Shown here: positions 6,314-59,603 of the stretch, one piece after another
Numbering within the stretch: the first letter of the stretch is position 1
How the letters are laid out: each line of letters starts with the position of its first letter
DNA from: Promethearchaeota archaeon Loki_b32
Lineage (GTDB): Archaea > Asgardarchaeota > Lokiarchaeia > Sigyniarchaeales > SOKP01
DNA: 64,000 nucleotides
NCBI GenBank assembly: GCA_005223125.1
Contig: NJBH01000008.1
Coordinates: 64,001 to 128,000 of the forward strand
Direction of reading: 5' to 3'
The notes under the pieces: model-generated
Told to the model about the DNA's origin: nothing
Seen by the model: only the letters and a program-made list of their open reading frames with translations
The model's database searches: none
Position numbers and translations under genes: made by a program

Positions 6314-6332
6314 ATGCTAGGAAATTTAGTAT

Positions 6333-21651: not shown

Positions 21652-23337
21652 ATGATAAATAAAAAACGGAATTATACTATTAAATTCTTACTAGTTTTAG
21701 TAGCAATTTTTTTCATCTCAATTCCGTTAATGTTAGGAGACTTAAAATCCGACTTCAATACCGTACTTTATGATCCTAACCCTAAAATAAGCGATTTCTC
21801 CAAGGATGATTTTAATGCATTACTTACTGAAGAAAAACAAGGACTTGGAAATATATCTATATATGATATTGATTTTAGTGATTTAGAGATGGGATTTATT
21901 ACTTATAATGAAATGTATCCTCTAATTGGGGAAGATATTTTTTCAAAAAATTTGAATATAACCCAGCTTAATATGCAATTCAATGAAACTATAGACCCTG
22001 CAATAGTAGATAATTTGAATGAAAATATAACAGATAGCAATAGTATAACAGTGAAATTAAATGAAAGTTTGTTTGTTGAATACAATGATCTAACGGAAGG
22101 TTATTTAATTTATCTTCCTCGTTTAGTTCCTTGCGATTTATTACAATTTTCTGTTAATAATGGTACTGATAACTTTGAATTAATTGAAGAAACTGATTAC
22201 ACAGTTGATAAAGATAATTTCATTGTATTTAGTTATGAATCCTATTTTAATATATCTGTGACTACAAATTTCACAATGTATCTTATCTGGGAATATACTT
22301 TAGAATTAACTGATTGGAGTTTAAGTCAGATAATTGGGGATGAAGAATTAATAATTGAGGATGAAGAACAAGATTTTACTACTGATTTTAATTATTATTT
22401 TATTTTAACAGGGAAAACATATAATGAATCTATTCCAATTCCTGGCGAACCTATTTTCGCAGATAATATAGATATTGCCTTAACTATTAATCATCCAGAT
22501 AAGGATTTATTTACTAACCATATTCTTGAATTAAATAACGAAACTGTGGATATTGCTGGTCACTTAAATCCAGATGATACAATTGATGTATACTTGGCAG
22601 ATCACTTTTCCGGAGAACTAAGTGAATTTTCTTTGAATTTTACAATTCCATTTACATTTAAATTTATCGAACCTGTTGGGGAAACATGGGCAATAGACAG
22701 ACTTGTAGAAATGAATAATATCCGCCAGCGTATTTATTTAGCATCAATAATAAATGGCCCTCAACATATTTATTTCAAAAATCTATCATTTTATGAGCCT
22801 ACAATTTATGCTGATCAAATTTTAAGCAACACTTCTTTATTTGAAAGAGATTTCACATATTTCTTTTTGAATACGACTCTGACAGGAAGATATGGAATAA
22901 AAGTTAGTGTTCCTTATCTGATTGTTGGAGAAACTTGCCCTTTTATAATTAAATATAAACCGACCCAAACTCTAAGAGTTGTTGTATTAGATAATATAAA
23001 AATGCCACTTGTAGGAGCAGATGTTAAAGTATACTATTTTGATCAAGAATATGGAACGTATGTATCTAAAGATAAAGTTCAACCAATCAGTCCAGGCAAG
23101 ACCAATGAAAATGGTGAAATTGTATTATTGCATGTTCCTGCTGGAAATTATACAATTAGAGTTTATCACAGCGGAAGATTCCTAAAAGAATCTACTTGCA
23201 GTACTTATAATTATAGAAATTATATCACTACAAATTATCCTCATTTTCCTTTATGGATAATAATATTTGGAATTACAAATGGAATCATTCTAATATTTGG
23301 ATTAATTTTTTATTCAAAATATAAGAAAATGCGATAA
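21652..23337 (+). CDS. Cell-surface glycoprotein with a prealbumin/carboxypeptidase-regulatory-like domain and C-terminal TM
   Basis: N-terminal hydrophobic segment, many sequons, 'GADVKV...TNENGE...GNYTIRV', C-terminal TM with basic tail. Confidence 0.7.
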   Translation: MINKKRNYTIKFLLVLVAIFFISIPLMLGDLKSDFNTVLYDPNPKISDFSKDDFNALLTEEKQGLGNISIYDIDFSDLEMGFITYNEMYPLIGEDIFSKNLNITQLNMQFNETIDPAIVDNLNENITDSNSITVKLNESLFVEYNDLTEGYLIYLPRLVPCDLLQFSVNNGTDNFELIEETDYTVDKDNFIVFSYESYFNISVTTNFTMYLIWEYTLELTDWSLSQIIGDEELIIEDEEQDFTTDFNYYFILTGKTYNESIPIPGEPIFADNIDIALTINHPDKDLFTNHILELNNETVDIAGHLNPDDTIDVYLADHFSGELSEFSLNFTIPFTFKFIEPVGETWAIDRLVEMNNIRQRIYLASIINGPQHIYFKNLSFYEPTIYADQILSNTSLFERDFTYFFLNTTLTGRYGIKVSVPYLIVGETCPFIIKYKPTQTLRVVVLDNIKMPLVGADVKVYYFDQEYGTYVSKDKVQPISPGKTNENGEIVLLHVPAGNYTIRVYHSGRFLKESTCSTYNYRNYITTNYPHFPLWIIIFGITNGIILIFGLIFYSKYKKMR

Positions 23338-23751
23338 GGCTTTTGATTGTTATCTTTTGTGATAATATAGATGATCATTAATAAAAAACTTGCTGTCGTT
23401 AAATATACTATTATACATACAAACTTATTTTTGTAATACGAAATTAAACATAAAAAATAGGAATGGAAAAGAAAAAGTGGCAAGAGATTTAAACAGAAAG
23501 GTTCTTTTTACACTTTATTTTGGGATTTCTGGTGATACCTTACAATTTAGTTCAATAAGAGAAGCTTCAGGAGATGGAATGGCTCATGTTTACTCAATAC
23601 GATTAGAACTATCTCTTCTTTCAAACAAAATATGTCTATAGCTAAACAGCATAGTAATTATTGAACCAAATTTAACAAAAAGTCTAATCCAATTTTTATC
23701 ATAATCAAAATTAAATTTTGAGAAAAGAGATTAAAGTGTGAAATTGAAATA

Positions 23752-23898
23752 ATGAGAAAAGGATCTACGTTTGTATGGAAGTACTTCATCATATGTTTTG
23801 CAATATCCACATTTATACTGGTACCTATTGGAACTGTCTATGCGCAAGAGAGAACACTCTACTATATCGGGTATGATTATAAGGAGCTGATAATATGA
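23752..23898 (+). pseudogene. Signal-peptide-only remnant of a secreted precursor
   Basis: Translates MRKGSTFVWKYFIICFAISTFILVPIGTVYAQE..., similar to the 25461 N-terminus (TFFIIPTALAQE). Upstream 23610-23690 duplicates 25336-25415. Confidence 0.6.
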
Positions 23899-24389
23899 AT
23901 GAAAAGGAAAATAATGTGAAAGAAATGAATAAGGAAGAAAACCATAGGAGTTTTTGGAAAAAGTTTAATGAAAAATGGTTATGGGTTAATATCGGTAGTT
24001 ATATAGTTGGAACAATATTACCTTGGTGGTTATTTTTTATCGGTATTACAAACTTGATGACAGTAATCTTTTTAACAATATCAACCCTACTAATTATACC
24101 TTTGATGTATTACTTTTTCAATTACTTTAGAAAATCAAAGCACCAAACGATTATTATCAAAATAATGTTGGTTGGATGCGGCGGATTTAGTTTAGGTATT
24201 TTTATCTGGTTTTTTATTGGTTATACATTTATTATGGCTCCTTGGGCACCTTTAAATAATTTAACTGGTGTCCTAAGACAAAGAATTTTTCTTCTACTTC
24301 TGATATTTTCATGGGGACTTGCTGCATATATAATGTATAGAATAGGTAAAAAAAGAGATTGGAGACCACCCTCCCATTTAATAAATTAA
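23895..24389 (+). CDS. 4-TM membrane protein, immunity-like paralog 1
   Basis: Shared motifs WLWV, RKSK, GG..LG, WAP and GKKRDWRP. Confidence 0.8.
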   Translation: MNEKENNVKEMNKEENHRSFWKKFNEKWLWVNIGSYIVGTILPWWLFFIGITNLMTVIFLTISTLLIIPLMYYFFNYFRKSKHQTIIIKIMLVGCGGFSLGIFIWFFIGYTFIMAPWAPLNNLTGVLRQRIFLLLLIFSWGLAAYIMYRIGKKRDWRPPSHLIN

Positions 24390-24733
24390 GTAATTTTCTT
24401 TTTTTAATTCAAAAATTTTAAGATAAATTTGTAATACAAAAATAAGAAAGTGTAGAAGAAGGCAAAAAAAATCATCAAGAAAATGACAAATACAGATAGA
24501 AAATATTTTGAGGAAATAGAAAAGTTTGTCGATATTTTTAAGGAAATAAATCCAACAGTGATTGTTATTGAAGATATTAGTAAGAAAAAAGAAAAAATAA
24601 CATTTCTTAAAAGAAAAAATGATTGAATTATTAAAAGAGAGGAAAGGAACAAAATTTTTAGGTGAAATTAAAAATATCAGAAGGCAAAACTTTTTGGTTG
24701 TTGTTAATGATATGATTATAAGGAGCGGATATT

Positions 24734-25204
24734 ATGAATGAAAAGGAAATTAATGTGAAAGAGAGGAATAAGAAAGAAAACCAGAAGAGTTTCTGGAAAA
24801 ATTTTAAAGAGAATTGGTTATGGGTTACAATCGGGTTTTACATAGGTATAACATCAATGGGCTGGATTGAGTATTTCAGAGGATGTTTTTCTTTAATAGA
24901 AGTAGTTCTTCCCACTTTCATAGGTCCCATTTTTCTATTCGGTATCTTCTATATTAGAAAATCAAAGGATCAAAAAGTGATAATGCGATTGATAATAGTA
25001 ATTGGTGGTGGCTTAGCTTTAGGATTTCCGATATTCATGTCCGTCAATTATATTCTTTTTGTTACATCTTGGGCTCCTTTTCATGAGATTAACGCCATAT
25101 TACGAAGAATACTTACCATCTTGGTTATATTATTATCATATGGTGGAGCAGCATACATAATGGACAAATTAGGTAAGAAGCGAGACTATAGACCGTTTTT
25201 ATAA
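24734..25204 (+). CDS. 4-TM membrane protein, immunity-like paralog 2
   Basis: Same motif set; ends GKKRDYRPFL. Confidence 0.8.
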   Translation: MNEKEINVKERNKKENQKSFWKNFKENWLWVTIGFYIGITSMGWIEYFRGCFSLIEVVLPTFIGPIFLFGIFYIRKSKDQKVIMRLIIVIGGGLALGFPIFMSVNYILFVTSWAPFHEINAILRRILTILVILLSYGGAAYIMDKLGKKRDYRPFL

Positions 25205-25460
25205 TCTTAGAAATTATAAATAAACTTTTTTTTTTTTCAAAATATTTTAAACTAAATTTTTTTTTTTAATAAAATGAGAGACTCCTAGAAAAAGTCTTAA
25301 ACCTACCGCGACAGATGAAGATTAGGAATCAGGAATATCTCTTCTTTCAAACAAAATATTTATATAGCTAAATATCATAGTAATTACTGAAACAAACTTT
25401 ACAAAAAAGTCCAAAACAAAAATTAAAAAAAGTAAATTAAAATAAAGAGGCGAAACTAGG

Positions 25461-26879
25461 ATGAAGAAGAAATTAAAGATTAAATTTATATCAGCGATTA
25501 TTATTGGAATTATTCTATTACCTACTTGTACATTCTTCATAATCCCAACTGCTCTTGCTCAAGAGAATTCCTTTCAAAACATCTCAGTTCAAGAAGCATA
25601 TACAATGATAAAAAAGGAGGAAAATACTGAAAATCTTGTTATTTTAGATGTTAGAGATACAACCGAATTTAACTTAGGTCATTTATACGATTCTATTCTA
25701 ATACCTCTCAATGACCTTGAAGCAAGAATCGGTGAACTTGAAGATTATAAGACTTCTGAGATAATAATTTACTGTAAATCTGGTTATCGAAGTCAACAAG
25801 CAAGTGAAATTTTAGGTGAATATGGTTTTACAAAAGTATATAATATGCTTGGTGGCATTTTAGCATGGATTGATGCTGATTATCCAATTTGGACAACTTC
25901 ACATCATATTACAGTAGATGAAATAACCGATAAAAAATTTGAATTATTAATAGAACCATTTCTTTTACATTATAAAGGTTGTTCAACATGCACTGAGAAT
26001 CAAGAATGTCCTATTGAGAGTGAATCAATAAGTATAACATCTGAAACATTAGAACAAGGAGAAGATCAAATAGTTATTCTCAAAAAATATGAATTTAATG
26101 GAACAGTCTATGAATTTATTCATACTCATACTATTTTATGGAGTTATGATAAATTTACTAGTAATTATAATAAATCTGCTTACTTCATTTCAACAGAAAT
26201 TACTTCAGAAAATTTCTATTTGCAATATTATCAATTAGAATACGTAATATACCATAAGAACTATAACTTAACGATTTATACTCACCTTGAACCTTTAAAT
26301 TCAGAGATTTATAATAGTTCATTTACATATATAAAATATACTCCTGCTAACGGAAAAGCTATAACTTCAATGGAGTTTGTGCAATTCAATATGTCTGTTA
26401 TATTATCCCAACAATACGACATTTTAGCGGATATCGCGGAAGAAATGGCAGAAATATATAAAAAATCAGAAGATTTAGACCTAATGGAACTATATTATGG
26501 TTATACCAATATGGGAGAAGGAATTGGATCTCTTTCTGAATTAGTAAAAGAATGGCTTGGAGAATATGATTATCAAATTCTTGAAAGTGATGCAGTGTTA
26601 TACGATTACAGAGTACCCCCCATTAATGGTGGTGACCCTCCACCTCCACCTCCACCTCCACCTCCACCTCCACCTCCGCCTCCACCACCACCACCACTAC
26701 CATCTTTGTTAACATGTATTATTTGTATTGCGGGTTGTGAGCTAGCGGTTTTAGCAGGATGCATTATTGCATGCATTATCTATATCCCATTTTGCCCTGT
26801 TTGCGTAGTGGTAGTGGAATTATGGGAATTATTTGACCTAGGTTGTGGTTATGTTTGTGAATATATTGGTGCTTGTTAA
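25461..26879 (+). CDS. Secreted precursor: signal peptide + rhodanese + spacer + polyproline + 10-Cys halocin-C8-like C-terminus
   Basis: ALA/QE signal cleavage site; LDVR...YCKSGYRS rhodanese; ~20 Pro; hydrophobic C-terminus with 10 Cys ending CEYIGAC. Confidence 0.75.
   Translation: MKKKLKIKFISAIIIGIILLPTCTFFIIPTALAQENSFQNISVQEAYTMIKKEENTENLVILDVRDTTEFNLGHLYDSILIPLNDLEARIGELEDYKTSEIIIYCKSGYRSQQASEILGEYGFTKVYNMLGGILAWIDADYPIWTTSHHITVDEITDKKFELLIEPFLLHYKGCSTCTENQECPIESESISITSETLEQGEDQIVILKKYEFNGTVYEFIHTHTILWSYDKFTSNYNKSAYFISTEITSENFYLQYYQLEYVIYHKNYNLTIYTHLEPLNSEIYNSSFTYIKYTPANGKAITSMEFVQFNMSVILSQQYDILADIAEEMAEIYKKSEDLDLMELYYGYTNMGEGIGSLSELVKEWLGEYDYQILESDAVLYDYRVPPINGGDPPPPPPPPPPPPPPPPPPPPLPSLLTCIICIAGCELAVLAGCIIACIIYIPFCPVCVVVVELWELFDLGCGYVCEYIGAC
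26637..26696 (+). repeat. (CCTCCA)n/(CCA)n microsatellite encoding polyproline
   Basis: About 20 consecutive CCN codons. Confidence 0.95.
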
Positions 26880-26913
26880 CGGATTGGTATTTGTTCTTAA
26901 TAAACTTTAAGGA

Positions 26914-27363
26914 GTGGTTATATTGAAGCTGAAAGAAAAAATCAAGAACTTTTGGAATGAGTTTAAAAAGCATTGGTTATGGGTTAATATTGGTGCATAT
27001 ATGATGATAACGATGATAAATTGGACAGGATTTTTCCTTGGCTCTATAAAATTTGAGATAGCCCTCTTAATTACACTTATATACCCCTTAATAATTCTTA
27101 CTATCTTTTACATAAGAAAATCTAAATTTGAGACAACCATTTATAAGATAGTATGGATTGTATGTGGGGGTATAGCTCTAGGATTTCCAATATGGGGTAT
27201 AATTTTTTTCGTCCTTATTGGAGCTCCTTGGGCTCCTTTATATGAAGCACATAATATTTTAAGAGGAAGCATTTCAATCCTGATTCTGGTACCAGCATAT
27301 GGTGTGGCAGCGCATTTAATGTACAAATTAGGTAAGAAGCGAGACTATAGACCGTTTTTATGA
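26914..27363 (+). CDS. 4-TM membrane protein, immunity-like paralog 3 (candidate cognate of 25461); true start may be TTG 26923
   Basis: Same family; directly follows the Cys-rich precursor; its 3' end plus ~35 nt downstream is nearly identical to 25165-25240. Confidence 0.8.
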   Translation: MVILKLKEKIKNFWNEFKKHWLWVNIGAYMMITMINWTGFFLGSIKFEIALLITLIYPLIILTIFYIRKSKFETTIYKIVWIVCGGIALGFPIWGIIFFVLIGAPWAPLYEAHNILRGSISILILVPAYGVAAHLMYKLGKKRDYRPFL

Positions 27364-27717: not shown

Positions 27718-29289
27718 TTAATTATTATCAACAGTTTCTCCATATCCAATTAACCGATAACGTCTATTTATTATTCTCGAAATTGCAAAGATAAAATCTT
27801 CTGCAGGACATATTGGAGGATTTAATTTAATGATAACACTGTCTTTTAAAATTTTAGTTACTGTTCCTCCTGTTTTTTCTGTACCAACGACTAATAATAA
27901 TTTTTCATTATGCTTAAGCGAATGTACTCTGAGCATCTGCTCGGAGCCAATCACCCTATCTAATAGGTTCACTTTAAATTCAATTTCATGAAGGATTTCA
28001 GGTAATGTATCTGGTTTTCCGACTAGGTTCCCTATTAAATGATCACCCTTAGTTAAAGCAGGATCTAAGTTAGTTCCTAAACCTATAAGCCCTCCAGGTT
28101 TTGCGTTATCTAGTAGGTTACTCCCTTGACTAATACTAACAACAGTAGATTTTAAAGGAATGTATTCATCTTTCACCCTTAAACCCGGTCGAATTTCTAT
28201 TTGATCTCCAATTTTAATCATTCCTTTTAACACTGAACCACCAATTACCCCACCCTTTAAATCACTTATTTCTTTCCCAGGTCTATTAATATCAAAAGAT
28301 CGTGCAATTAAAAATTGAAATTCGCCTTCAGGAAGTTTGGGGGATGGAATAATTTCTTCAAATGCTCTTATAATTAAATCTATATTTGCTCCAAATACAG
28401 CGGAAATTGGTATTATTGGAGCGTTTTCAGCAATAGTTCCCTTAATAAATTCTTTAATTTGTTGGTAATTTTCTAATGCTTGTTCTCGTGAAACCGCATC
28501 AATTTTATTTTGAATGATGATGATATTTTTTATTCCAGCAATGTGTAATGCTTCTAAATGTTCCCTCGTTTGTGGTTGAGGACATCGCTCATCAGCCGCA
28601 ATTAATAAGCAAGCTCCATCCATTAATGAGGCCCCACTTAACATTGTTGCCATAAGAATTTCATGACCAGGAGCATCAACAAATGAAATATTCCTTCTAA
28701 ATTCTAATTGTTCTTTACATTGTGGGCATAAGTAACGGGGTTGTCCTTTTTCCCTTGACTTCTCCGCTAGATAATATGTTATATATTCATCACAATTCGG
28801 ACAATATAAAATTGTGGCATTAGAATACCCTAATTTTATTGAAATTCCTCTTTCTTGCTCTTCAGAGTGTCTATCTGTCCAATCTCCTGTTAATGTTTTC
28901 ACTAATGTAGTTTTTCCGTGATCCACATGACCTACTAAACCTATATTACATTCAGCTTGTTTTTTTATTAATTCTTTAATATTTGAAGCTTTAGTTTTAG
29001 ATTTTGGTTTTGGTTTAGGTTTAGATTTTGGTTCTAGTTCTGGTTTTACTTTAGAAATAACTTTTACTTTAGATTTTGGCTCTTCTTGAGCACCAATTTC
29101 TTGATATAATTTCTTTGCATTAGTAATATATTTCTTTGCAGTAGCAGCACCCACACCTTTAATCTTTAACTTTATTAATTCATCAGGATTAACATTAGCT
29201 AATTTTGCAATGCTATCTATCCCTGCAGCTTTCATTTTATCTGCAGTAGCTTTTCCGATGCCAGCAATATCTGTTAAATCATATGACAT
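27718..29289 (-). CDS. eif2g: Translation initiation factor aIF2 gamma with an N-terminal HhH domain
   Basis: NIGLVGHVDHGKT, RGISIKLGY, DAPGHE, QPQTREH, NKID and RSFDINRPG; N-terminal tandem HhH (GIGKATA, GVGAATA). Confidence 0.95.
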   Translation of the reverse strand: MSYDLTDIAGIGKATADKMKAAGIDSIAKLANVNPDELIKLKIKGVGAATAKKYITNAKKLYQEIGAQEEPKSKVKVISKVKPELEPKSKPKPKPKSKTKASNIKELIKKQAECNIGLVGHVDHGKTTLVKTLTGDWTDRHSEEQERGISIKLGYSNATILYCPNCDEYITYYLAEKSREKGQPRYLCPQCKEQLEFRRNISFVDAPGHEILMATMLSGASLMDGACLLIAADERCPQPQTREHLEALHIAGIKNIIIIQNKIDAVSREQALENYQQIKEFIKGTIAENAPIIPISAVFGANIDLIIRAFEEIIPSPKLPEGEFQFLIARSFDINRPGKEISDLKGGVIGGSVLKGMIKIGDQIEIRPGLRVKDEYIPLKSTVVSISQGSNLLDNAKPGGLIGLGTNLDPALTKGDHLIGNLVGKPDTLPEILHEIEFKVNLLDRVIGSEQMLRVHSLKHNEKLLLVVGTEKTGGTVTKILKDSVIIKLNPPICPAEDFIFAISRIINRRYRLIGYGETVDNN

Positions 29290-29729: not shown

Positions 29730-31892
29730 ATGGTTAGGTTTTCTACTAAAAAATTTATCTACTTTTCAATCATCATTTTAACTCTCATTCCACTTGTCAG
29801 TTCAAGTCTAAGTTTTAGCTTCTCGAATTTAGAAAAGAATAATGTTTCGGAGGAAATTAGAGTTTCAAATGGAAACTTAGATTTGGATTTATCATTTCTA
29901 CCAGATATTGATTATTCTTCGTTAAATAATCTCTGGTATAACCATAAAATCGAAATGTTGATAATAACTCCAGATGGTTCTGCATTTGTCAACGCAATTC
30001 AACCATTAGCAGATTGGAAAAATGAGAAAGGGGTAAAAACAGTCATATTAAGCAATTACTCTTCATATGAAGGTGTGGATGATGCTGATAAAATTCGTAA
30101 TATGATTAAATCGTATTATGAAAAAGAAAATGTTAGATGGGTCCTTTTAGCAGGTGATGCTGGAAACGGAAAGAATGAGCTCCCGATTAGATATGTTTAT
30201 AATCCCGATGTTAGAAGCGTGGACCCACCTGAAAGTGAATCCATAGGAGATAATTATTTTAAACCTACGGATTTTTATTATGCGGATCTTACAGGTACTT
30301 GGGATAGCGATGAAGATGAAGTATGGGGAGAGGCACCAGAGTATAATGATTTTGGTTTAGATGAGATTTCATGGATCCCTGAGGTTTATGTTGGAAGATT
30401 ACCCGCAGGTAATTCCGTTGAACTTGAGACTATGGTAAACAAAACATTAAAATATGAAACTGATCCAGACGTAGATGATTGGATGAATAATATGCTCCTC
30501 GCTGGAGGTATTTCTGATACATTTTTTCAAGAGCCTCCAGATGGAGAAGATGAATCAAAACTAACTACATATATTTGGCAGAATTATGTTTTGTCAGAGA
30601 TGAACTTTACCCATTTATGGAGATCGACATATTATATACCTCCTGATCCTAAAGAACCATTAAATTCAACAAGTTTCATAGATCAATTTAATTTAGGTTA
30701 TTCAACGGTAATTTTTGCGGGTCATGGAGAATATTCTAGATATTTAGATCAATCTGGTACAATATATACCAATAATGATGCTCAAAATGCATTAAATACT
30801 AATAAACCTTCATTAGTCTATGGAGATGCATGTACTACATCTAGCTATGATTATAACAATAATAGTATTGGAGAATATTTAATCAAAAAAAAAGATGCTG
30901 GAGCAATTGGATATATCGGAGGTTTAAGAGTAACATGGTACCACGTGAATGATGACAACCTAGAGAAATTGAATCGTGGAAACGCGAAGCTTTTTTGGAA
31001 AGAATTTTTTGAAGGAAAAAAGTTTCAACAAGGAAGAGCTCTATATGATTCTAAAGTTGCATATATAAATAGTGACTATTATAAAGGAGGAGAAGGAGCA
31101 ACATATAAGGAATGGGAACGTAAAAATCTATTAACATACTGTCTTTTGGGTGATCCAGAACTTGATATTTATACCAATAAACCAAAATTGGCATTAAATC
31201 CTTTTACTGAAAATATTTATGAAGGCCAATTAGTTTCTACATCGATAAAGGATATCAATGGTAAAAACATTCCTTACGCAAGAGTTCACTTAAAATCATC
31301 TGATGGTAAATATTATACAGCATATGCAGATGAACGTGGTTTAGTGAGATTCCGTCTTCCTGCTCAAGCAACTGAATTTTATAATGTAACTATTACAGGA
31401 CATAATTTAGTTCCAACACATTTCAATTTTACTACAATTCCAGATAATTACGACCCTCAATTACTCAGATTAGACGTAATTCCTGAGAAACCTTCATCAT
31501 CTAACAAAATAAATTTTAGTATTGAAACTTATGATAATATGTCTGGAATAGAAAGTGTATATTTAGTATTATCAAAAGACAACTTTACTACTTACTCATA
31601 TTATGAATCAACAAATAGCTATGAAGAAAATAATGATGTATTTACAATCACTACTGACAGATTAACTTCGGGTGAATATTCCTATTGTATTGTTTCAAGA
31701 GACTATGCAAACAATACAAATGTGTTTTATAATTCAGGATTCACTTTTTCTCTATTAAAACCTATGATAGATTATATATTTATTTCATTTAGTGTTATGA
31801 TTGTTGCAATCATAGGAATCTCTGTTTTCAGTCTCTTCAAAGGTTTACAAAGATATTCTCGTGTTGTCAAAGAGATTGAAAAATTAACGTAA
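29730..31892 (+). CDS. C25 (gingipain-family) cysteine peptidase, membrane anchored
   Basis: WKNEKG, LLAGD, TDFYY, VGRLP, catalytic GHG and DAC, LLGDP; C-terminal TM. Confidence 0.9.
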   Translation: MVRFSTKKFIYFSIIILTLIPLVSSSLSFSFSNLEKNNVSEEIRVSNGNLDLDLSFLPDIDYSSLNNLWYNHKIEMLIITPDGSAFVNAIQPLADWKNEKGVKTVILSNYSSYEGVDDADKIRNMIKSYYEKENVRWVLLAGDAGNGKNELPIRYVYNPDVRSVDPPESESIGDNYFKPTDFYYADLTGTWDSDEDEVWGEAPEYNDFGLDEISWIPEVYVGRLPAGNSVELETMVNKTLKYETDPDVDDWMNNMLLAGGISDTFFQEPPDGEDESKLTTYIWQNYVLSEMNFTHLWRSTYYIPPDPKEPLNSTSFIDQFNLGYSTVIFAGHGEYSRYLDQSGTIYTNNDAQNALNTNKPSLVYGDACTTSSYDYNNNSIGEYLIKKKDAGAIGYIGGLRVTWYHVNDDNLEKLNRGNAKLFWKEFFEGKKFQQGRALYDSKVAYINSDYYKGGEGATYKEWERKNLLTYCLLGDPELDIYTNKPKLALNPFTENIYEGQLVSTSIKDINGKNIPYARVHLKSSDGKYYTAYADERGLVRFRLPAQATEFYNVTITGHNLVPTHFNFTTIPDNYDPQLLRLDVIPEKPSSSNKINFSIETYDNMSGIESVYLVLSKDNFTTYSYYESTNSYEENNDVFTITTDRLTSGEYSYCIVSRDYANNTNVFYNSGFTFSLLKPMIDYIFISFSVMIVAIIGISVFSLFKGLQRYSRVVKEIEKLT

Positions 31893-49905: not shown

Positions 49906-50441
49906 AATAATTTTAGTTACCATGTAAATTCTAACGGATGATATGAAGTGTTTGTCGTTATTTCTATTCGATACAAGCATTTTACTATCCTTTAGTATGC
50001 CTTTTTTCCTTTATTCTTTCCCAAAATTAAATGAAAAGCACTTTGATTTATTCTTAATCAAATAATCTCGCTATTTTTTATCCCTTTTTTTACTATCTCA
50101 TCGTAATATCCATCATAATATCATAGACTTGTACTTGTACTAGAACTAGTAAAATTACATAGATGCTCGACTAAGGGATTTAAATTGATTGATTAGATGG
50201 ATGAGAAACAATTACGTGCATTTTAGCAGTTAATAAGGGAAAAAATGACCGATTACTCGGTCAGCAGTTATTCAGCTCCCCTAGGAGCGAAATTAAGATT
50301 TCTTTGCGGGTTCATGTTTTTTTTCTTTTTTTTTTTCTTTTTTTAACATTATCGGAAAAGATTCTATTTTTTTAGGTAAATTTTATTTTTATAGAAAAAC
50401 TCACCTTAATTCAGATAAATTTTTCTGATAAATTAGACTAA

Positions 50442-52073
50442 TTGATCGTAATGAAACATGACACAAAAATGACTAGAATAAAAACTGTTGTTTCGAGATT
50501 TTGTCCCAAAATTTTAAGGAAAATGAGCGATTACAACAAAGATACTAAAATTAAGCAAATTGAACCAGGTGAATCAGTAGTAGAGATGCAGGGGATCACA
50601 AAGCGATTCCCGGGTGTGTTAGCTAATGATACTATTAATTTTGAGCTGAAAGCGTGTGAAGTTCATGCTTTGCTTGGAGAAAACGGTGCAGGCAAAACAA
50701 CCTTAATGAATATCTTATACGGACTCTATCGATTTGATTCAGGTGAAATTAAAATTCAAGGAGTCCCGGTTCACCTAAGATCGCCAAAGGACGCCATTGC
50801 AATTGGAATTGGAATGGTTCACCAGCACTTCACACTAATACCGACAATGACAGTTGCAGAGAATATTATTCTGGGGGTCAAGTCTTCCAAAGGACCTCTT
50901 TTGAATCTCGCTGAAGCCGAGAAGCAAATCATCGAGCTCTCAAAAACCTACAATCTAGAGGTTGACCCCAAAGCAAAGGTAGAACAGCTCCCAATGGGTA
51001 TTCGCCAACGAGTTGAGATAATAAAAACTCTATACCGTGGTGCACGGATACTTATTCTCGATGAACCGACCTCAGTTCTCACTCCTATGGAAATCGACGA
51101 TTTTTTTGACGCTCTGAAATCCATGGTAAAAGAAGGGTTGACTGTTGTCTTTATAACTCATAAGTTACCCGAAGTGTTTGCCATAAGTGACCGTGTCACA
51201 GTCCTCAGACGTGGACGTTTTGTTGAGACAGTTGAGACCAAACTAACTAACCCAATGGACCTTTCGATAAAAATGGTCGGAAGAGAGATCCATTCAGGGC
51301 AGGAGAGGGTTGATATCAAACCTGGTAAGGTTGTTCTTGATGTTCAGGGTCTTAAAACCATGAATGACAAAGGTCAAGAAGCCCTCAAGGGTATTTCTTT
51401 CTCAATTCACGAGGGTGAGATACTGGGAATTGCAGGGATCTCAGGAAATGGTCAGAAGGAGCTCGCAGATGTACTCTCTGGTATGAGACCATCTACAGAT
51501 GGCACGATTCGGTTTCTGAAGCAAGATGTAACCAATTACACCCCAAAGAAATTAATCGAAATAGGTATAGGGGACATCCCTGAGGATCGGGCAGGCACTG
51601 GTCTTCTGATGAACTTTTCCATCGCGGAAAACTTGATTCTAGAGTCCCATGCTAAGACTCCATTCTCACATCGATCGTTCTTGAATAAAGACGAAATCCG
51701 AAAGTATGCAGAAAAAATTATCCAAGAATATGACATTGACACACCAAGTCCTAATGTTCCACTAAGAAACCTGTCAGGTGGTAACCTCCAGAAGGTTCTC
51801 TTAGCAAAAGTTCTCTCTAGAGATCCAAAATTGCTTATTTTAGCTCAACCTACAGCTGGATTAGACGTTAGAGCAACAGAATTCATATCTAAAAAGATAT
51901 TGGAGGAGAGAGAAAGACAAGTGGCCATTTTACTCATCTCTGAGGACTTAGAAAGAATTATGACCCTGAGTGATCGCATCGCAGTCATCTATGAGGGTAA
52001 AATTGTAGGGATAGTTCCTACTGCTGATGCAAAGATCAGTGAAATTGGTCGGATGATGACTGGTGTTGTATAG
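50442..52073 (+). CDS. Nucleoside/sugar (CUT2, NupA-like) ABC ATPase with tandem NBDs; true start probably ~50523
   Basis: GENGAGKT, MVHQHF, LDEPT, GISGNGQ and LSGGNLQK. Confidence 0.92.
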   Translation: MIVMKHDTKMTRIKTVVSRFCPKILRKMSDYNKDTKIKQIEPGESVVEMQGITKRFPGVLANDTINFELKACEVHALLGENGAGKTTLMNILYGLYRFDSGEIKIQGVPVHLRSPKDAIAIGIGMVHQHFTLIPTMTVAENIILGVKSSKGPLLNLAEAEKQIIELSKTYNLEVDPKAKVEQLPMGIRQRVEIIKTLYRGARILILDEPTSVLTPMEIDDFFDALKSMVKEGLTVVFITHKLPEVFAISDRVTVLRRGRFVETVETKLTNPMDLSIKMVGREIHSGQERVDIKPGKVVLDVQGLKTMNDKGQEALKGISFSIHEGEILGIAGISGNGQKELADVLSGMRPSTDGTIRFLKQDVTNYTPKKLIEIGIGDIPEDRAGTGLLMNFSIAENLILESHAKTPFSHRSFLNKDEIRKYAEKIIQEYDIDTPSPNVPLRNLSGGNLQKVLLAKVLSRDPKLLILAQPTAGLDVRATEFISKKILEERERQVAILLISEDLERIMTLSDRIAVIYEGKIVGIVPTADAKISEIGRMMTGVV

Positions 52074-52163
52074 GGTAGGGTCCACTGATGATAATCTTGA
52101 TCATTGTATGGGGGAACCTTGTTAATATTTTTGAGGACTGAGATTAGATGAGGACAATCCACT

Positions 52164-53186
52164 ATGACTGATTCGGAGTCGCCCTATTATCGTTCAAGTC
52201 ATCATGCTAAATCTTTGTACTTGAATGCTCAATCAATAGGCCTGTCTGCTGATGACAGGATTCAAATACAAGGCAAAATTGGTCTGATACATAGTATATT
52301 CCAGCGCGTAATCAACATCACCGTGTTGGAGAACCGATTGATCAGTTTGGTTGGACAAGAGGTAGGACAAGGACCGTTGAATATACTTGTGAACATTCCT
52401 AATCATATCAATCTGTCAACAATCGGGATAAAGAGGGGTGATATCGTAACACGAGTCGGTGAGTCAATAGTTATAGGTGAGAATGTTATTGTGATATCAA
52501 CCCAGTGGACTGAACTATGGGAGCCAAAGAGAAAATTTCCAGCTAGTCTGCAACCCCTTAAGACAATTATGGCAAACATAGAGATTATGAGAGATATTGC
52601 CCTTGCTTCTGATCACCTCAGTGGTTTAGGTGAATTAATTCCTTTCACCCACATTAACGGTCTTAAAGATTCCAAAACTGAAAAATTAGGTTCTGTTTCT
52701 CATTTGGCGTTACCTCATATTTCATCAATGCTCAAGGCAATAAAATCTGGTCATTCCCACGACATAATACGAATTACCAAACATCTTGTAGGATTGGGTC
52801 CAGGACTAACTCCTGCTGCTGATGATATGCTTCTCGGGTTAATGATTAGTATGTTGTATATTTCAGAAAACTTTAATGAAACGAGTATTGATGTCAAGAA
52901 AATCAATAAGGATATTATATCCATCATTTCAAGGAGGACTACAATTATAAGCGAAGAGTTCTTAAGAGAAGCTTCAGTTGGAAAAGTAAATGAAGCTGTC
53001 GCCTCTCTTATGGAGAATTTGTTGACTTCAAGACAAAGAGAGTTAGAGAATTCTGTTAGAAACATCTTGGATTTAGGTGGTACGTCTGGCACAGATACTG
53101 TGTTTGGAGTCATCCTAGGGTCACATTTAATGCTGATCGACATATACTATAATAGTAATAAAAATGAGGGTATTTTTCGCTTGTAG
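52164..53186 (+). CDS. DUF2877 / YlbF(AllH)-like protein
   Basis: HSIF..VINI, LVGLGPGLTPAADD, RTT.IS and G.TSG.D. Confidence 0.88.
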   Translation: MTDSESPYYRSSHHAKSLYLNAQSIGLSADDRIQIQGKIGLIHSIFQRVINITVLENRLISLVGQEVGQGPLNILVNIPNHINLSTIGIKRGDIVTRVGESIVIGENVIVISTQWTELWEPKRKFPASLQPLKTIMANIEIMRDIALASDHLSGLGELIPFTHINGLKDSKTEKLGSVSHLALPHISSMLKAIKSGHSHDIIRITKHLVGLGPGLTPAADDMLLGLMISMLYISENFNETSIDVKKINKDIISIISRRTTIISEEFLREASVGKVNEAVASLMENLLTSRQRELENSVRNILDLGGTSGTDTVFGVILGSHLMLIDIYYNSNKNEGIFRL

Positions 53187-53491
53187 TTTTCGTATCTTTT
53201 CCAAAGTCTCAATACAAACTTGAATCCCCTTTTGATCTGGATTTACAATCATCCCATGTGCATTTTTACTTTTTTTTAGTTGAATTATTTCAGCATCGGT
53301 ATATTCGTTCCAATTATTTATAGGAAATATATGTATGCGCTCGCGGTTGATTCTAGGACTTTTGAAGTATATTGATTTTTTTCTTTTTTCTTTCACGAGA
53401 AAATATTTCCAAAATTTAATCCATCAATCCCATAAGAAAGAGGTTGACATATGATATCACTGTTTCTTTTTAATTAATTAATTAGAAAAAA

Positions 53492-54397
53492 TTATTTTTT
53501 AAAATGTGTACCGGTCTTTCCAAGGAGGGCATCTTGGATATGATCAATCGAGGTAATGATCGCTTGAGCGCCGCCTTGTTCAATAAAATTGACACACGCT
53601 TGGACTTTCGGTCCCATGCTTCCTTTCGGAAATTGCCCTTCGTCCAAAAATTTTGTTGCTTCGGGGATGGTCAATGAATCGACAAATTTTTCATCCGGTT
53701 GCATGAAATTGATGGCAACTTTTTCTACATCTGTGGCTATCAAGAGGATATCGGCCCCGATCTGTTCCCCGAGTTTGGCGGTAGCTAAATCTTTATCAAT
53801 AACCGCTTCGACTCCGTGAAGACGTTCATCCTTTTTATACACAGGGATTCCTCCCCCGCCACATGCGATGATAATAAACCCTTCTTCCATTAAATGCTTA
53901 ATTTCTCGCCATTGGTAGATTTTAATGGGTTTCGGTGATGGTACCACTCGGCGCCACCCCCGTGACGTGTTGACAAATCCCGGACGGGGATCTGGATAAG
54001 CAGGTCCAACAGGTTTTGTGGGGTTCTCAAATGCCGGATCATCTTTTTTTACCGAGGTATAAGTAAGCACCGTGAGAAAAAGTTTGTCATCGGATATACC
54101 TAGGCGCATTAGCTCTTCGTCCAGGGTGGATTCAATCATATACCCCATTTGACCTTGTGTCTGCGCCCCGATGATGGATAACGGCATTTTTGGGACCTCA
54201 TCACATGCTTCTTGTTGTAATAGTAAAGCCCCCGATTGAGGTCCATTCCCGTGAGTTATCACGATGCTGAATCGTTTCGAGAGTTCGGCAATGGAAGCAA
54301 CAGGTTTTCGAATGTTGGCAAATTGCTCTTCTGCTGTGCCTGCTTGGCCTTTTTGGATGAAGGCGTTCCCACCCAATGCGATGATTAATTTTTGCAT
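53492..54397 (-). CDS. arcC: Carbamate kinase
   Basis: ALGGNA, THGNGPQ, PTKPVG, RRVVPSP, EAVIDKD and GSMGPK. Confidence 0.95.
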   Translation of the reverse strand: MQKLIIALGGNAFIQKGQAGTAEEQFANIRKPVASIAELSKRFSIVITHGNGPQSGALLLQQEACDEVPKMPLSIIGAQTQGQMGYMIESTLDEELMRLGISDDKLFLTVLTYTSVKKDDPAFENPTKPVGPAYPDPRPGFVNTSRGWRRVVPSPKPIKIYQWREIKHLMEEGFIIIACGGGGIPVYKKDERLHGVEAVIDKDLATAKLGEQIGADILLIATDVEKVAINFMQPDEKFVDSLTIPEATKFLDEGQFPKGSMGPKVQACVNFIEQGGAQAIITSIDHIQDALLGKTGTHFKK

Positions 54398-54405
54398 TAT
54401 TTTCC

Positions 54406-54582
54406 TCAGCTTCCTTCCAATTTTTCTAGGAATTTGAGGATATCAAGGTCGCCTCCAGCAGGAGGTCGCCAATTTACATGGATTACATCCACATTCTGTT
54501 TCTCCAAATCATCAGCAAACATTTCGATTCCAATATTGATGACCTTGAGTTCCTTGCTAAAAAGTTTTTCTTTCTCAGTCAT
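54406..54582 (-). CDS. Small FdrA-associated protein (58 aa), not in the ORF track
   Basis: MTEKEKLFSKELKVINIGIEMFADDLEKQNVDVIHVNWRPPAGGD...; start overlaps the fdrA stop (TAATG); GGAGG SD upstream. Confidence 0.85.
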   Translation of the reverse strand: MTEKEKLFSKELKVINIGIEMFADDLEKQNVDVIHVNWRPPAGGDLDILKFLEKLEGS

Positions 54583-56156
54583 TAGAACACCTCCTCAAAA
54601 AGTTTATCTTGTATAGCACCTCTAGTCGCAATTAGTGCTGCCAATCTGGCTGCTTGTGCGTTACTGGGCATAATTATCACACCTACATCCTCCAGAAGCT
54701 TATATTGTTTATCAAATTCTTGATGATCAAGGGATGTACCCACGATGGAAGCCATGACAGACAAGTACCTCCCGTTACGTTCAGCATATGCTTTTACTTC
54801 TTGTATGGGTGATATGAGTTCGGCTGCGGGGTTATCATGAGACCCATACCCTAGAACGACATCCAAGAGAATAACAGCGGTCTCAGGGTCATTTCCTTCT
54901 TTGATTATTCTTTGATTACGGAGTGTGTAATCAATCATTGGGTGTGGTCTACCAATTACGAATTCTTCCGCACCCATGTCCACACAAGTATGGTTCTTGC
55001 TTAAAGTTGAATCTTCTAGCATCAAATGAGGTTTCAGGGGTGAATTGGAGAAAATTTCTCCGAGCAGAGGTGTTATAAGAATCAACGTTTCATAGGAGAG
55101 AGTTCCACCTGTATAAAGACCCCGTACGAAGTTCTGATTAGCAACCAATCTATCCCATTCAGATCGGGCGATAGAAAGAATTTCTTCTCTTGAAGCAGTA
55201 AATATATTTTTTATTACTTGTTTTCCTTGTACAAGAGCACAAGCTGTGGTGGCTGCATCTTCTAATGTTTTGGCGGCAGTATAACCTTGATTTTCAATAT
55301 CACCACCAAGAAAATTCACTATTACTGGCTTACTGGATTGACGTGCGATTTTTAGTACTTTTTCACTAATCTCTTGATTGGGTGGCTTAGAAATGAGAAC
55401 GATAACTTTGGTTTCATCATCTTGTTCTAGGCGTTTTATGCCTTCAATCATCATGATGCCTCCTACAGTTTTTGAGAGGTCATTTCCACCAATTCCAATT
55501 GCTTGGGATATACCAAAACCCTCATTATGTATCAGAGTGGAAACCTGTTGCAATCCTGTTCCAGCTGCTGCTACTATTCCAATATTCCCTTGATTAACGA
55601 CATTCCCAAAGCCCAAGACTATATTATTGATAATTGCAGTCCCACAGTCAGGACCCATGACCAAGAGACCTTTTTCCAGAGCTAATTGTTTGAGCTCTAA
55701 TTCATCTTCAAGAGATACATTACTGCTGAAGATAAAAACATTAAGTCCTTTTCTAAGTGCTTTCGACGCTTCTCTCTTGGCATATACCCCCGGTACTGAT
55801 ATAATTACTAGATTTGCGTCACGCATATTTCTAAGTGCGGAATCAAGTGTCTTGGGGACTATTTTATTCTTATCTTTTGAAACTCGATTTGTAAGGAGCC
55901 TGTCAACTTCAGAGAGCGCATGAGCCATGCTTTTTTCATCTTGAGTATCTAGAGCTATCACTAGGTCGTTTGGACTTGCCTTTCTGGCATCTTCGGTTAG
56001 AAGATTCAAGGCATTCAGAAAATTCTTGTTGGTAGGTGTGCCCATGACAACACCAGCTTGTAACACCCCATCGAGCTCAGTAACTTTGTTAGATAGTCTC
56101 ATTAGAATCACAGAGTCTCGATACGTGTCTTTACGAATAATTACAGTTACAGTCAT
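54582..56156 (-). CDS. fdrA: FdrA (AllF)-family protein
   Basis: YRDSVILM, ISVPG.YA, MGPDCGT, ISKPP, GGTL, GRPHPMID and LLDVVLGYG. Confidence 0.93.
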   Translation of the reverse strand: MTVTVIIRKDTYRDSVILMRLSNKVTELDGVLQAGVVMGTPTNKNFLNALNLLTEDARKASPNDLVIALDTQDEKSMAHALSEVDRLLTNRVSKDKNKIVPKTLDSALRNMRDANLVIISVPGVYAKREASKALRKGLNVFIFSSNVSLEDELELKQLALEKGLLVMGPDCGTAIINNIVLGFGNVVNQGNIGIVAAAGTGLQQVSTLIHNEGFGISQAIGIGGNDLSKTVGGIMMIEGIKRLEQDDETKVIVLISKPPNQEISEKVLKIARQSSKPVIVNFLGGDIENQGYTAAKTLEDAATTACALVQGKQVIKNIFTASREEILSIARSEWDRLVANQNFVRGLYTGGTLSYETLILITPLLGEIFSNSPLKPHLMLEDSTLSKNHTCVDMGAEEFVIGRPHPMIDYTLRNQRIIKEGNDPETAVILLDVVLGYGSHDNPAAELISPIQEVKAYAERNGRYLSVMASIVGTSLDHQEFDKQYKLLEDVGVIIMPSNAQAARLAALIATRGAIQDKLFEEVF

Positions 56157-56168
56157 ATTATAATACCT

Positions 56169-57113
56169 TCATTTTCTCCAATACGGGACAGTTAGTGCAG
56201 ATGGAGCTTTTGTTGTCCCTCTAAATAGTACAATTACTACTAAGGCCACAAGATAGGGCATAATCAAGACTAAGTAGTTCCAATTGCTTGGGATATAACC
56301 CCCGCCTATTAGATTAGCCGCTACAGAATATCCTAAGCCAAATATCAGACTACCCAAAATGGCTCTGTAAGGACTCCAGCGTGAAAAAATTACAACAATT
56401 ATGGCGATCCAGCCACGTCCTCCTGCAATACCGCTATCATAAAGCCCTAGGTATCCCAATGATAGATATGCACCAGCCAAACCTGCCATTGCCCCGCTAA
56501 AAATGTCACAAAGATGTCTAATCAGGTTAACATTAATACCAGCCGCATCACACGCTTCAGGATTCTCTCCAACCGCTCTGATTTTGAGACCCAACGTAGT
56601 TTTGTATAGGATCAACCCGAAAACAATCGCTAGGAAGTAGGCGAGATAGACAAATGCATTATGTTGAAACAAAATCTCCCCAAGCACAGGAATATCGCTC
56701 AGAAAAGGGATATAGATAGAGGGTAGGGTAGTTACAATTGGAACTGTTTTTTTAAGGACAATATTATAAAGAAAGTTAGCTAAACCAGCAGCTAAGGACA
56801 GGATTAGTAATCCAGCTATCAATTGATTGACTCTCATTTTGACACAGGTAAGGCTATGAATCAATCCAACACCTGCACCCGAAACAATAGCTGCAAGTGT
56901 GCCTAAGATGTAATCCCCAGTTTCGAAAGTTACCCACAAACCGACGAAAGCCCCGAGCGTGATTATTGCCTCGAGCCCTAAGTTGATTACTCCTGCTCGC
57001 TCATTATAAACTTCGCCAATGGAAACAAAGAGAATCGTAACTGAAAGTAAAACACCTCCTGCAAGGATCGATGTAATAAATTCTATCATGATGATTTCCT
57101 CGTAGTCATCCAT
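56169..57113 (-). CDS. Nucleoside-type ABC permease (NupC-like)
   Basis: ERAGVINLGLE, RAVGENP and GRGWIAI. Confidence 0.9.
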   Translation of the reverse strand: MDDYEEIIMIEFITSILAGGVLLSVTILFVSIGEVYNERAGVINLGLEAIITLGAFVGLWVTFETGDYILGTLAAIVSGAGVGLIHSLTCVKMRVNQLIAGLLILSLAAGLANFLYNIVLKKTVPIVTTLPSIYIPFLSDIPVLGEILFQHNAFVYLAYFLAIVFGLILYKTTLGLKIRAVGENPEACDAAGINVNLIRHLCDIFSGAMAGLAGAYLSLGYLGLYDSGIAGGRGWIAIIVVIFSRWSPYRAILGSLIFGLGYSVAANLIGGGYIPSNWNYLVLIMPYLVALVVIVLFRGTTKAPSALTVPYWRK

Positions 57114-58108
57114 TTTTGAACTATCAAGACAGTGAGCACTAGCACTGCCACCATAATGAAAATGATATCAACAGGGATTCCTGCCCCCCGCTGCATAGAT
57201 TCTCCTCCGATTTGTAGAACTGCAAAGAAGAAAGCAGCAAAAATTACACCAATGGGATGAAAGATTCCCAAAGCTGCTACTGCTATTCCTTGAAAGCCAA
57301 AACCAGGAGAAAAACCCCTAATCAAGTAATGATGTACACCAAATACTTCCAGTACCCCTGCTATTCCAGCTATTCCCCCACTTAGCAGTCCTGCAGTAAT
57401 CACAACCCTTGTTACGTTAACCCCTCCATGTTCGGAAGCCCTTGGATTTTGTCCAACAGCTCTAATTTTATATCCTATTGTTGTTTTATACATAATTATA
57501 TAGATAATCAAAGCTATAATGACCACTAGAAAGATACCTACATGAAGCCTGTATTTGGGATCTAACAAAGGCAACCAAGTTGACTCTGGAAGGAAAGGTG
57601 TTCTTGGATTGAACGTATTTGGATCCTTGAGCGGCCCAATAGTGAGCCAAGCGATTACAAACATCGCAATGAAGTTCATAACAACAGTTGGAAATATTTC
57701 GTTAATTCCCAGCTTGGTCTTCATGATAAGTGGGATTGCCAACCATAACACACCTCCCATGAAACCTGCAATAAATATCAATGGTAGTGCGATAAAGCTA
57801 GGTACTATTTCCATCCTAGCACCAATCAAATACGCTAGAAGCCCACCAATGTAGAGCTGCCCCTCGACACCTAAATTCATGAATCGAGCTTTGAGAGCAA
57901 TCAGGAAAGCCAATGCGGTCAGTAGTAGCGGAATAAAGCGGATTAGCGTTTCACTAATGCTATTGGGTCTACCAAAAGCACCGGTAGGTATTGATACTAA
58001 AGCGCTGATAGGATCGTAGCCCAACAATAGTAGGGTGACAGAGAAGACAAGTATGGCCAAAAACAATCCAATTGGATAAGATAAGTAATTTTGGTATTTC
58101 TTCACCAT
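57086..58108 (-). CDS. Nucleoside-type ABC permease (NupB-like)
   Basis: NLGVEGQ, NEI, RAVGQNP and GFQGIAVA. Confidence 0.9.
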   Translation of the reverse strand: MVKKYQNYLSYPIGLFLAILVFSVTLLLLGYDPISALVSIPTGAFGRPNSISETLIRFIPLLLTALAFLIALKARFMNLGVEGQLYIGGLLAYLIGARMEIVPSFIALPLIFIAGFMGGVLWLAIPLIMKTKLGINEIFPTVVMNFIAMFVIAWLTIGPLKDPNTFNPRTPFLPESTWLPLLDPKYRLHVGIFLVVIIALIIYIIMYKTTIGYKIRAVGQNPRASEHGGVNVTRVVITAGLLSGGIAGIAGVLEVFGVHHYLIRGFSPGFGFQGIAVAALGIFHPIGVIFAAFFFAVLQIGGESMQRGAGIPVDIIFIMVAVLVLTVLIVQKWMTTRKSS

Positions 58109-58146
58109 ATAAAATCAGCCATTCTGTGTTCACAATCGTTGTTTTA

Positions 58147-59397: not shown

Positions 59398-59478
59398 TTC
59401 AAATCATTACTCTTATAATTGTGATTTTATCAATCAACTATTTTATAATATTTATATTTTTTTAGTCGATTCCAAGGT

Positions 59479-59590
59479 TAATAGAAATGATCGATGATTA
59501 ATAAATATCATGATTAATAAATGATCGTTGACTAATAGATATGATCAATGATTAATAAATGATCAATAGAAAAGATTAATAGAAATAATA
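59479..59590. repeat. Degenerate tandem repeat in a divergent promoter region
   Basis: About 5 units of TAATA(G)A(A/T)ATGATC(G/A)(A/T)TGA(T/C). Confidence 0.75.
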
Positions 59591-59603
59591 GGATAGATAA
59601 AAA

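Follow-up and report, generated by a model that had tools for sequence, protein, structure and literature searches.

The locus at positions 25461-27363 of the 64,000-nt stretch analysed here (contig NJBH01000008.1 of Promethearchaeota archaeon Loki_b32, hereafter the window) is probably one of the alleles of an effector-immunity system that is polymorphic among Promethearchaeota (Asgard), a reading in which we place moderate confidence. The locus consists of a gene for an exported rhodanese protein with a short Cys-rich tail and a downstream gene for a small membrane protein with four transmembrane helices (4-TM). The window comes from a Loki-type metagenome-assembled genome of 4.13 Mb with about 30% G+C and 95.5% completeness.

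The toxin/immunity idea has strong comparative support. As judged from sequence comparison, the architecture of the locus is the one by which polymorphic toxin-immunity systems are defined. Among close relatives, a conserved N-terminal region carries unrelated C-terminal modules. A specific small downstream gene changes with the C-terminal module. Modules with their candidate immunity genes are also found as 5'-truncated cassettes, and partner genes are found standing alone.

Main gene and its variable tail

The main gene, its parts and its partner gene are as follows.

25461-26879 (+): main gene, an open reading frame (ORF) of 472 aa with signal peptide, rhodanese, conserved beta/alpha body, Gly/Pro linker and Cys-rich hydrophobic tail
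25599-25874 (+): rhodanese domain, aa 47-138 (Pfam PF00581, E 2e-16)
25893-26606 (+): conserved body domain, aa 145-382, ending in the junction motif ILESxAxLxD
26607-26705 (+): variable Gly/Pro linker, NGGD (aa 389-392) followed by Pro20; zone of recombination breakpoints
26706-26876 (+): variable tail cassette, aa 416-472, with 57 aa, 10 Cys, 5 acidic residues and no Lys or Arg
26914-27363 (+): cognate 4-TM partner TM4c, candidate immunity gene, with a probable start at TTG 26923

A preliminary description of 25461-26879 had listed a signal peptide, a rhodanese with CKSGYRS, NGGD, about 20 Pro and a hydrophobic tail with 10 Cys, and all of these are present. The signal peptide, as read from the sequence, is of the general secretory (Sec) type with a Lys-rich N-terminus, a hydrophobic core and ALA at aa 31-33, and it has no twin-Arg (Tat) motif. 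The N-terminal domain is assigned to the rhodaneses (sulfurtransferases) by the domain match and by the catalytic Cys105 (codon 25773-25775) at the head of the six-residue loop C105-K-S-G-Y-R-S. C105 is invariant among 50 aligned family sequences, and the conserved rhodanese is probably enzymatically active. The best structure match of the main-gene model is 3gk5 (Z 17.6, root-mean-square deviation 1.4, 100 residues aligned), which covers the rhodanese part.

The following stretch of about 240 aa had been described as a spacer. The stretch is present, but it is a conserved folded domain, for which AlphaFold2 predicts, at a predicted local distance difference test (pLDDT) score >90, an antiparallel sheet of eight strands and two long helices. 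It contains a CxxC-x5-C loop (aa 174-183) that is nearly invariant across the family alignment. The Pfam scan of the complete 472-aa protein returned only Rhodanese, and aa 151-472 matched no family in Pfam or NCBIfam at E up to 10. Ten longer relatives likewise yielded nothing except rhodanese in both databases. Rhodanese was also the sole match of the whole-protein model in structure searches. The body domain alone gave Foldseek E >0.03 against solved structures, and the best VIA Z of 6.3 is under the noise level. Its weak matches are curved sheets, for example porins and SRPBCC/START-like folds. The body is a novel beta/alpha domain.

A word-index search identified 35 close homologs, each of about 450-480 aa and with a rhodanese domain. 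An exhaustive HMMER search identified well over 100 clusters at 50% identity, and nearly all of the alignments end at residue 380-390 (about aa 382). The body is 50-89% identical in the alignment, and the region after ILESxAxLxD is unalignable between many members. About 70 loci were gathered from genomes and metagenomes, and the 52 non-redundant tails were classified. These tails fall into at least 25 unrelated classes. The preliminary description had proposed to examine whether homologs keep the N-terminus and swap the C-terminus, and this is the pattern that the family exhibits.

The tails have on average 77 aa, 11.5 Cys, 0.37 Lys+Arg and 4.2 Asp+Glu and are 74% hydrophobic. The cassettes range from 55 to 105 aa in length and contain 8-18 Cys. 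The Cys count is even in 44 of the 52 tails and in about 21 of the 25 classes. The tail of the window begins with CxxC, finishes with C-x3-G-x-C and is 80% hydrophobic. It is single-copy in its own genome. Its Cys richness is not due to chance, since this property recurs in the 52 non-redundant tails of relatives. AlphaFold2 models the window tail as three helices (pLDDT about 70-82), and CxxC/CxxxC spacing is repeated along the predicted tail helices. This spacing and the even Cys counts suggest that the tails may form disulfide-stapled helices. The ESM Atlas, searched with the tail and with the 4-TM protein, gave no informative match.

The class of the tail does not follow the body. Within a class the tail is better preserved than the body. 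The tail class of the window recurs on P0050, where the body is 38% identical and the tail is 57% identical, ungapped and with all 10 Cys in register. Among the pairs with bodies at least 70% identical, 25 of 30 differ in tail class, and 17 pairs with bodies less than 45% identical have the same tail class.

An archaeal C-terminal anchor, which consists of a TM helix and a basic cluster (PGF-CTERM type), was tried as an identity for the tail. The mean of 0.37 Lys+Arg and the window tail with none do not agree with such an anchor, and an archaeosortase-type sorting signal was rejected because the tail has no basic cluster.

The tail had also been described as halocin C8-like. Halocin C8 has 10 Cys. 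The window tail resembles it in style (hydrophobic, acidic, Cys-rich and C-terminal) but, on the profile searches, apparently not in family. The profile halocin_C8_dom (TIGR04449) matched neither the tail alone nor aa 151-472 at E up to 10. In six-frame searches it matched none of five genomes (the source genome and four relatives that carry the family) at the same limit, and the control Haloferax volcanii was matched. The HalI domain (PF22862, Hac8_like_N) was not found in the Pfam scan of the 472-aa protein. These results led us to reject kinship at the level of hidden Markov models. The export signal, too, is of the Sec and not the Tat type.

ProC8, the halocin C8 precursor of Natrinema, is likewise an exported archaeal protein that ends in a small hydrophobic peptide rich in Cys. 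It is exported by the Tat pathway and its N-terminal part is the immunity protein HalI (preprint 10.64898/2026.07.27.741052), whereas the Loki locus has a Sec signal, a rhodanese body, a separate TM partner and no halocin_C8_dom. The tail could still be a divergent true homolog, with a halocin_C8_dom peptide that is cleaved from the precursor, as both peptides are C-terminal, hydrophobic, acidic and Cys-rich, have about 55-76 aa and are carried on a larger exported precursor (10.64898/2026.07.27.741052). We consider this highly improbable in view of the negative profile searches with a working control, the missing HalI domain, the Sec-type signal and a candidate immunity protein that is a separate membrane protein. 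The description of the main gene as a toxin precursor keeps the swapped tails and the linked membrane gene on its side, gains the orphan cassettes and orphan partner arrays described below, and loses the kinship with halocin C8.

Membrane partners and exchange of cassettes

The 4-TM gene that had been reported after the main gene is present, and two further 4-TM paralogs lie upstream. TM4c begins 35-44 nt after the main gene. Its probable start is TTG 26923 behind AAGGAG at 26909-26914, which gives a protein of 146 aa instead of 149 aa. No terminator was found between the main gene and TM4c, in a region where a scan for bacterial-type promoters and terminators is uninformative. None of the three 4-TM paralogs of the window matches Pfam or NCBIfam. 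The nearest relative of TM4c is the partner of a related tail (G053/L020, 55% identity). The 4-TM family exhibits conserved loop motifs (YIRKSK, PWAPL and GKKRDxRP), and its variable positions lie mostly within the TM helices.

A same-strand ORF of 65-227 aa with 2-6 predicted TM helices starts within 200 nt downstream of 45 of the 63 tail-bearing genes, and several of the remaining 18 end close to a contig end. The type of partner differs between the tail classes. Class-1 tails (GCFGGDPxWDC...GCC) are paired with 4-TM partners of about 152-178 aa, class-2 and class-4 tails with 2-TM partners of 65-78 aa, and class-3 tails with partners of about 104-109 aa.

The preliminary description had linked the tail to the downstream membrane gene, and this linkage is borne out. 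Tail identity and partner identity are correlated in 28 non-redundant pairs when body identity is controlled (partial Mantel r = 0.64, permutation p = 2e-4, a p-value that is optimistic because the sequences are related and not independent). Body identity is uncorrelated with tail or partner identity in the same pairs (rho about 0.03). In the maximum-likelihood tree of the 4-TM family, the partners group by the class of the preceding tail, and the pattern is also visible case by case.

Two proteins of 239 aa (P0190 and P0204) exhibit a sequence of the 4-TM partner family joined to ArsR/helix-turn-helix-type domains (PF13412, PF01022 and PF12840). They are either real fusions or artefacts of gene calling.

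The boundary of exchange is visible in close relatives. At the nucleotide level, contig L111 and the window share 96% identity in the upstream gene (22050-23681) and in the main gene as far as 26672, which lies inside the repeat of the Pro linker. Beyond 26672, L111 has a class-15 tail, and this tail and all downstream DNA are unrelated to the window. Five other relatives with bodies 86-92% identical lose similarity between 26593 and 26689. The cassette and its partner are exchanged together by recombination at the junction. Contigs of Ga0209977 and Ga0209986 hint that several cassette classes may occur side by side and replace each other in one sediment population.

The 20 consecutive Pro of the linker (aa 393-412) are coded by a near-perfect (CCTCCA)n hexanucleotide repeat at 26637-26696, and the recombination breakpoints coincide with this repeat or just precede it. 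Linker length varies widely among relatives, from 0 to about 20 Pro or runs of Gly. Since the length is variable and the coding sequence is a hexanucleotide repeat, slippage may tune the length of the stalk. A diversity-generating retroelement was rejected as the source of the tails, as the tails form separate, unrelated classes with recombination breakpoints and do not vary by point mutagenesis.

The features upstream of the main gene are as follows.

23610-23681 (+): direct repeat copy 1, about 72 nt, 89% identical to 25336-25407; bounds the insert of two orphan 4-TM genes
23895-24389 (+): orphan 4-TM paralog TM4a, 164 aa, of the class-1 partner type
24687-24733 (+): short scar of 47 nt, with the last 24 nt or so of a class-1 tail ORF and the spacer before the partner
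24734-25204 (+): orphan 4-TM paralog TM4b, 156 aa
25336-25407 (+): second copy of the direct repeat, within the leader that precedes the main gene

L111 has a single copy of the repeat of about 72 nt and is without the window segment 23682-25327, which contains the two upstream 4-TM genes. TM4a is 73-87% identical at the nucleotide level to the gene after class-1 tails in L113, L114 and L116, and in the tree it is sister to the class-1 partner of L149 (64% identity). A search of the source genome with a class-1 query found no class-1 tail. Window positions 24687-24839 match L114 6297-6449 at 80%, and the tail gene of L114 ends at 6320. The 47-nt match upstream of TM4b thus looks like the scar of an earlier cassette. 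It was seen only at the nucleotide level; tblastn found no remnants of tail genes in the intergenic stretches of 23338-25460.

Spare cassettes are found in other genomes. Orphan ORFs that are truncated at the 5' end keep the last 80-90 residues of the body and continue into a different tail, followed by their own membrane gene. The orphan cassettes in L023 and L030 belong to class 5. L123 has a class-2 orphan cassette upstream of a full class-17 gene, L160 has a full gene with its partner followed by two orphan/partner pairs, and L157 also has an orphan 5'-truncated cassette. P0098 and P0146 start exactly at the Met that matches aa 304 of the window protein. Their body parts are about 90% identical to it, and they carry class-1 and class-15 tails. 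The 5'-truncated spare cassettes are predicted to be silent.

Two further loci exhibit altered copies. In L025 (7580-8973, G032), overlapping ORFs of 143 aa and 329 aa together make up a family member, with the split where the rhodanese domain ends. This copy is probably frameshifted, and a 3-TM gene still follows it. The 37-kb contig C32 of G052 has inverted truncated rhodanese-body copies at both ends (L028 and L029), with 68-69% identity to the window in the part that matches. The contig probably breaks at the variable tails, as is typical of repeated or variable loci that break assemblies, and the segment between the two copies may be invertible or mobile.

Distribution and alternative explanations

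The distribution of the body domain is patchy. It was identified in 19 of 400 genomes of the phylum, and within the genus in the source genome and four of 53 others. Matches to the 4-TM profile are found in 26 of the 135 genomes of the taxonomic family, and the body domain in 13. Genus g12 has 4-TM genes in 12 of 42 genomes versus the body domain in only one. In five g12 genomes that are 99-100% complete and have 4-TM genes, the whole-protein profile matches only rhodaneses and no body domain was found. The partner genes in these genomes form tandem arrays of diverged paralogs without a tail gene. G112, for example, has a class-4-type 2-TM partner beside two different 4-TM partners. Such clusters of unrelated partner families in genomes without an effector look like orphan immunity islands.

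These findings bear on the possibility that the main gene encodes an ordinary cell-surface sulfurtransferase, where the tail is an unusual two-helix anchor, the partner is an assembly or sulfur-relay protein and the variability results from weak constraint. We regard this as quite unlikely. The invariant catalytic loop of the rhodanese agrees with it, as do the signal peptide, globular domains, stalk and hydrophobic C-terminus, the internal module of some relatives and the conserved motifs of the 4-TM family, which suggest a common activity. However, it explains the behaviour of the cassettes poorly. Drift does not produce discrete classes whose tails stay 57% identical, with all Cys aligned, on bodies that are 38% identical. 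Nor does it produce sharp breakpoints between strains that are 96% identical, truncated spare cassettes or partners that are kept without the enzyme. The tails are without the Lys/Arg cluster that is borne by the neighbouring anchored proteins. The arrays of partners in genomes without a body gene are hard to reconcile with a partner that only helps to assemble the rhodanese protein.

Polymorphism, co-variation and orphan cassettes apply equally to a non-lethal system of self/non-self recognition. The tail would then be a membrane identity tag that binds the resident partner, as IdsD of Proteus binds IdsE, and the pair would govern Asgard cell fusion, adhesion or cooperation. The tails resemble membrane helices, the Pro-rich stalk and exported body suit surface display, and no recognisable toxin domain is present. 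We nevertheless consider such recognition rather unlikely. Diverged partner arrays in genomes without body or tail look like protective immunity and are less expected for identity partners, and it is not obvious what a conserved, probably active rhodanese would do in recognition.

The effector-immunity reading has its own difficulties, in addition to the optimistic p-value given above. Neither a known toxin domain nor a protease site was identified, and the toxicity, cleavage and transfer of the tail stay inferential. The tail is so hydrophobic that it should stop in the membrane of the producer during Sec export. A Pro-rich stalk with a membrane-held tail looks like an ordinary anchored archaeal surface protein, and the strictly conserved catalytic Cys of the rhodanese suggests an enzymatic function of the body itself. 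Co-variation like that of tails and partners would also be expected of any pair of proteins that interact within the membrane. Some longer relatives (P0052, P0059, P0064 and P0084) have the Cys-rich module in an internal position, ahead of a domain of about 180 aa, and this arrangement agrees better with a membrane hairpin of structural function than with a peptide that is released.

Proposed mechanism, known systems and gene neighbourhood

The carrier (rhodanese and novel beta/alpha domain) is exported by Sec and bears an exchangeable cassette behind the ILESxAxLxD junction and the Gly/Pro linker. Under the effector-immunity reading, the tail may be a membrane-acting toxin, like pore-forming or ionophoric bacteriocins, and could be delivered to another cell by cleavage, by vesicles or by cell contact. 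The membrane partner would neutralise the cognate tail inside the membrane, and the two upstream 4-TM genes may shield the cell against the tails of neighbours.

The rhodanese and the CxxC loop may help in cis to mature the Cys-rich tail, for example through disulfides made with sulfane sulfur in the anoxic habitat. DsbA, DsbB and VKOR were not detected in the 95.5%-complete genome, and E. coli can use a periplasmic rhodanese in place of DsbA (Chng 2012, as cited in PMC5403849). We propose on these two grounds that the rhodanese Cys and the CxxC-x5-C loop mature the tail in cis. Sulfane sulfur as the oxidant is a speculation. The complete scenario is an Asgard polymorphic weapon in which the rhodanese and the CxxC loop staple the tail with disulfides from sulfane sulfur, independently of O2 and Dsb enzymes, and the tail kills or marks neighbours without the matching membrane immunity, so that the tail classes record an arms race. 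Taken as a whole, this scenario is unlikely.

Bacterial polymorphic toxin systems such as CdiA/CdiI, Rhs and MafB are said to have been defined by Zhang, Aravind and co-workers. They share with the Loki family a conserved carrier, a sharp junction motif and unrelated cassettes, each with a downstream immunity gene, and also 5'-truncated orphan cassette/immunity pairs and stand-alone immunity genes. They differ in the carrier, which in the Loki family is a small Sec-exported rhodanese protein and not a filament, a YD shell or a substrate of a secretion system. The Loki cassettes are all short Cys-rich hydrophobic peptides instead of enzymes, the partners are all membrane proteins and the host is an Asgard archaeon.

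Membrane toxins with membrane immunity proteins include the pore-forming colicins with Cai/Cei, the ionophore CdiA-CT(EC93) with CdiI, and Tme/Tmi of the type VI secretion system. In common with what is proposed for the Loki tails, these are hydrophobic helical modules that act in the membrane, with an adjacent gene for a cognate immunity protein of 2-4 TM. There is no sequence similarity or detectable fold similarity, and the Loki tails are far more hydrophobic and contain 8-18 Cys. IdsD/IdsE of Proteus mirabilis is a self-recognition pair in which IdsD is delivered by the type VI secretion system. It is similar in that polymorphic hydrophobic regions of two membrane proteins are involved and cognate binding defines self. 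It differs in that delivery and in having no Cys-rich module or rhodanese.

The VARTIG modules of Thermococcales, whose organisation is likened to polymorphic toxin systems by the authors who describe them (PMC8416519), likewise have an exported archaeal protein with a hypervariable C-terminus that recombines and is followed by genes that vary. VARTIG proteins are large and built of Ig domains, one of which is variable, whereas the variable part of the Loki family is a Cys-rich peptide with a one-to-one membrane partner. PspE of E. coli, which according to PMC5403849 can drive disulfide formation when DsbA is missing, is an exported single-domain rhodanese with one catalytic Cys. PspE stands alone, whereas the Loki rhodanese is fused to a body and a Cys-rich cassette.

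Archaeal polymorphic toxin systems have been predicted and are uncharacterised according to Makarova 2019 as cited in PMC8416519. No family model in Pfam or NCBIfam covers the body domain, the tails or the partners. Full-text searches, within the searchable literature, identified no paper that links Asgard archaea, rhodanese and polymorphic toxins and no account of a polymorphic toxin system in Asgard archaea, and a listing in the supplementary tables of Makarova 2019 is possible.

The module is compact, with two genes, and the dozens of natural cassette/partner pairs provide built-in controls of specificity (cognate versus non-cognate). If the tails are toxic, they would be a new class of disulfide-rich membrane-active archaeal peptides and a new kind of archaeal weapon, possibly with sulfur-driven disulfide formation without oxygen or Dsb enzymes. 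They would also give a first access to competition or kin discrimination in Loki-type archaea, a group in which contacts between cells have a central place in ideas on how eukaryotes arose. Asgard archaea are the closest archaeal relatives of eukaryotes, and the dozens of classes would record an arms race among them if the weapon reading is true.

The gene neighbourhood exhibits no conserved synteny, and no neighbour except the partner gene is kept across the family loci. No secretion genes are conserved near these loci, where the only export feature seen is the Sec-type signal peptide. The neighbours of the main gene in the window are an exported protein of 561 aa with no known family (21652-23337, +), an exported C25 (gingipain-type) peptidase (29730-31892, +; Pfam E 1.5e-60) and an aIF2-gamma-like GTPase of 523 aa (27718-29289, -). 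None of the three is syntenic with the family elsewhere, and a dedicated protease is therefore not indicated. Both large exported neighbours end in a single TM helix with a Lys/Arg cluster (..YSKYKKMR type), unlike the Cys-rich tail.

The aIF2-gamma-like protein has an N-terminal extension of about 110 aa, which consists of helix-hairpin-helix-like repeats (..IAGIGKATADKM.., ..IKGVGAATAKKY..) and a Lys/Pro-rich linker before the GTPase domain. Elsewhere in the window, the G+C content of about 0.30 increases to 0.38-0.41 in a stretch of some 10 kb (50001-60000), which could be due to rRNA genes or foreign DNA.

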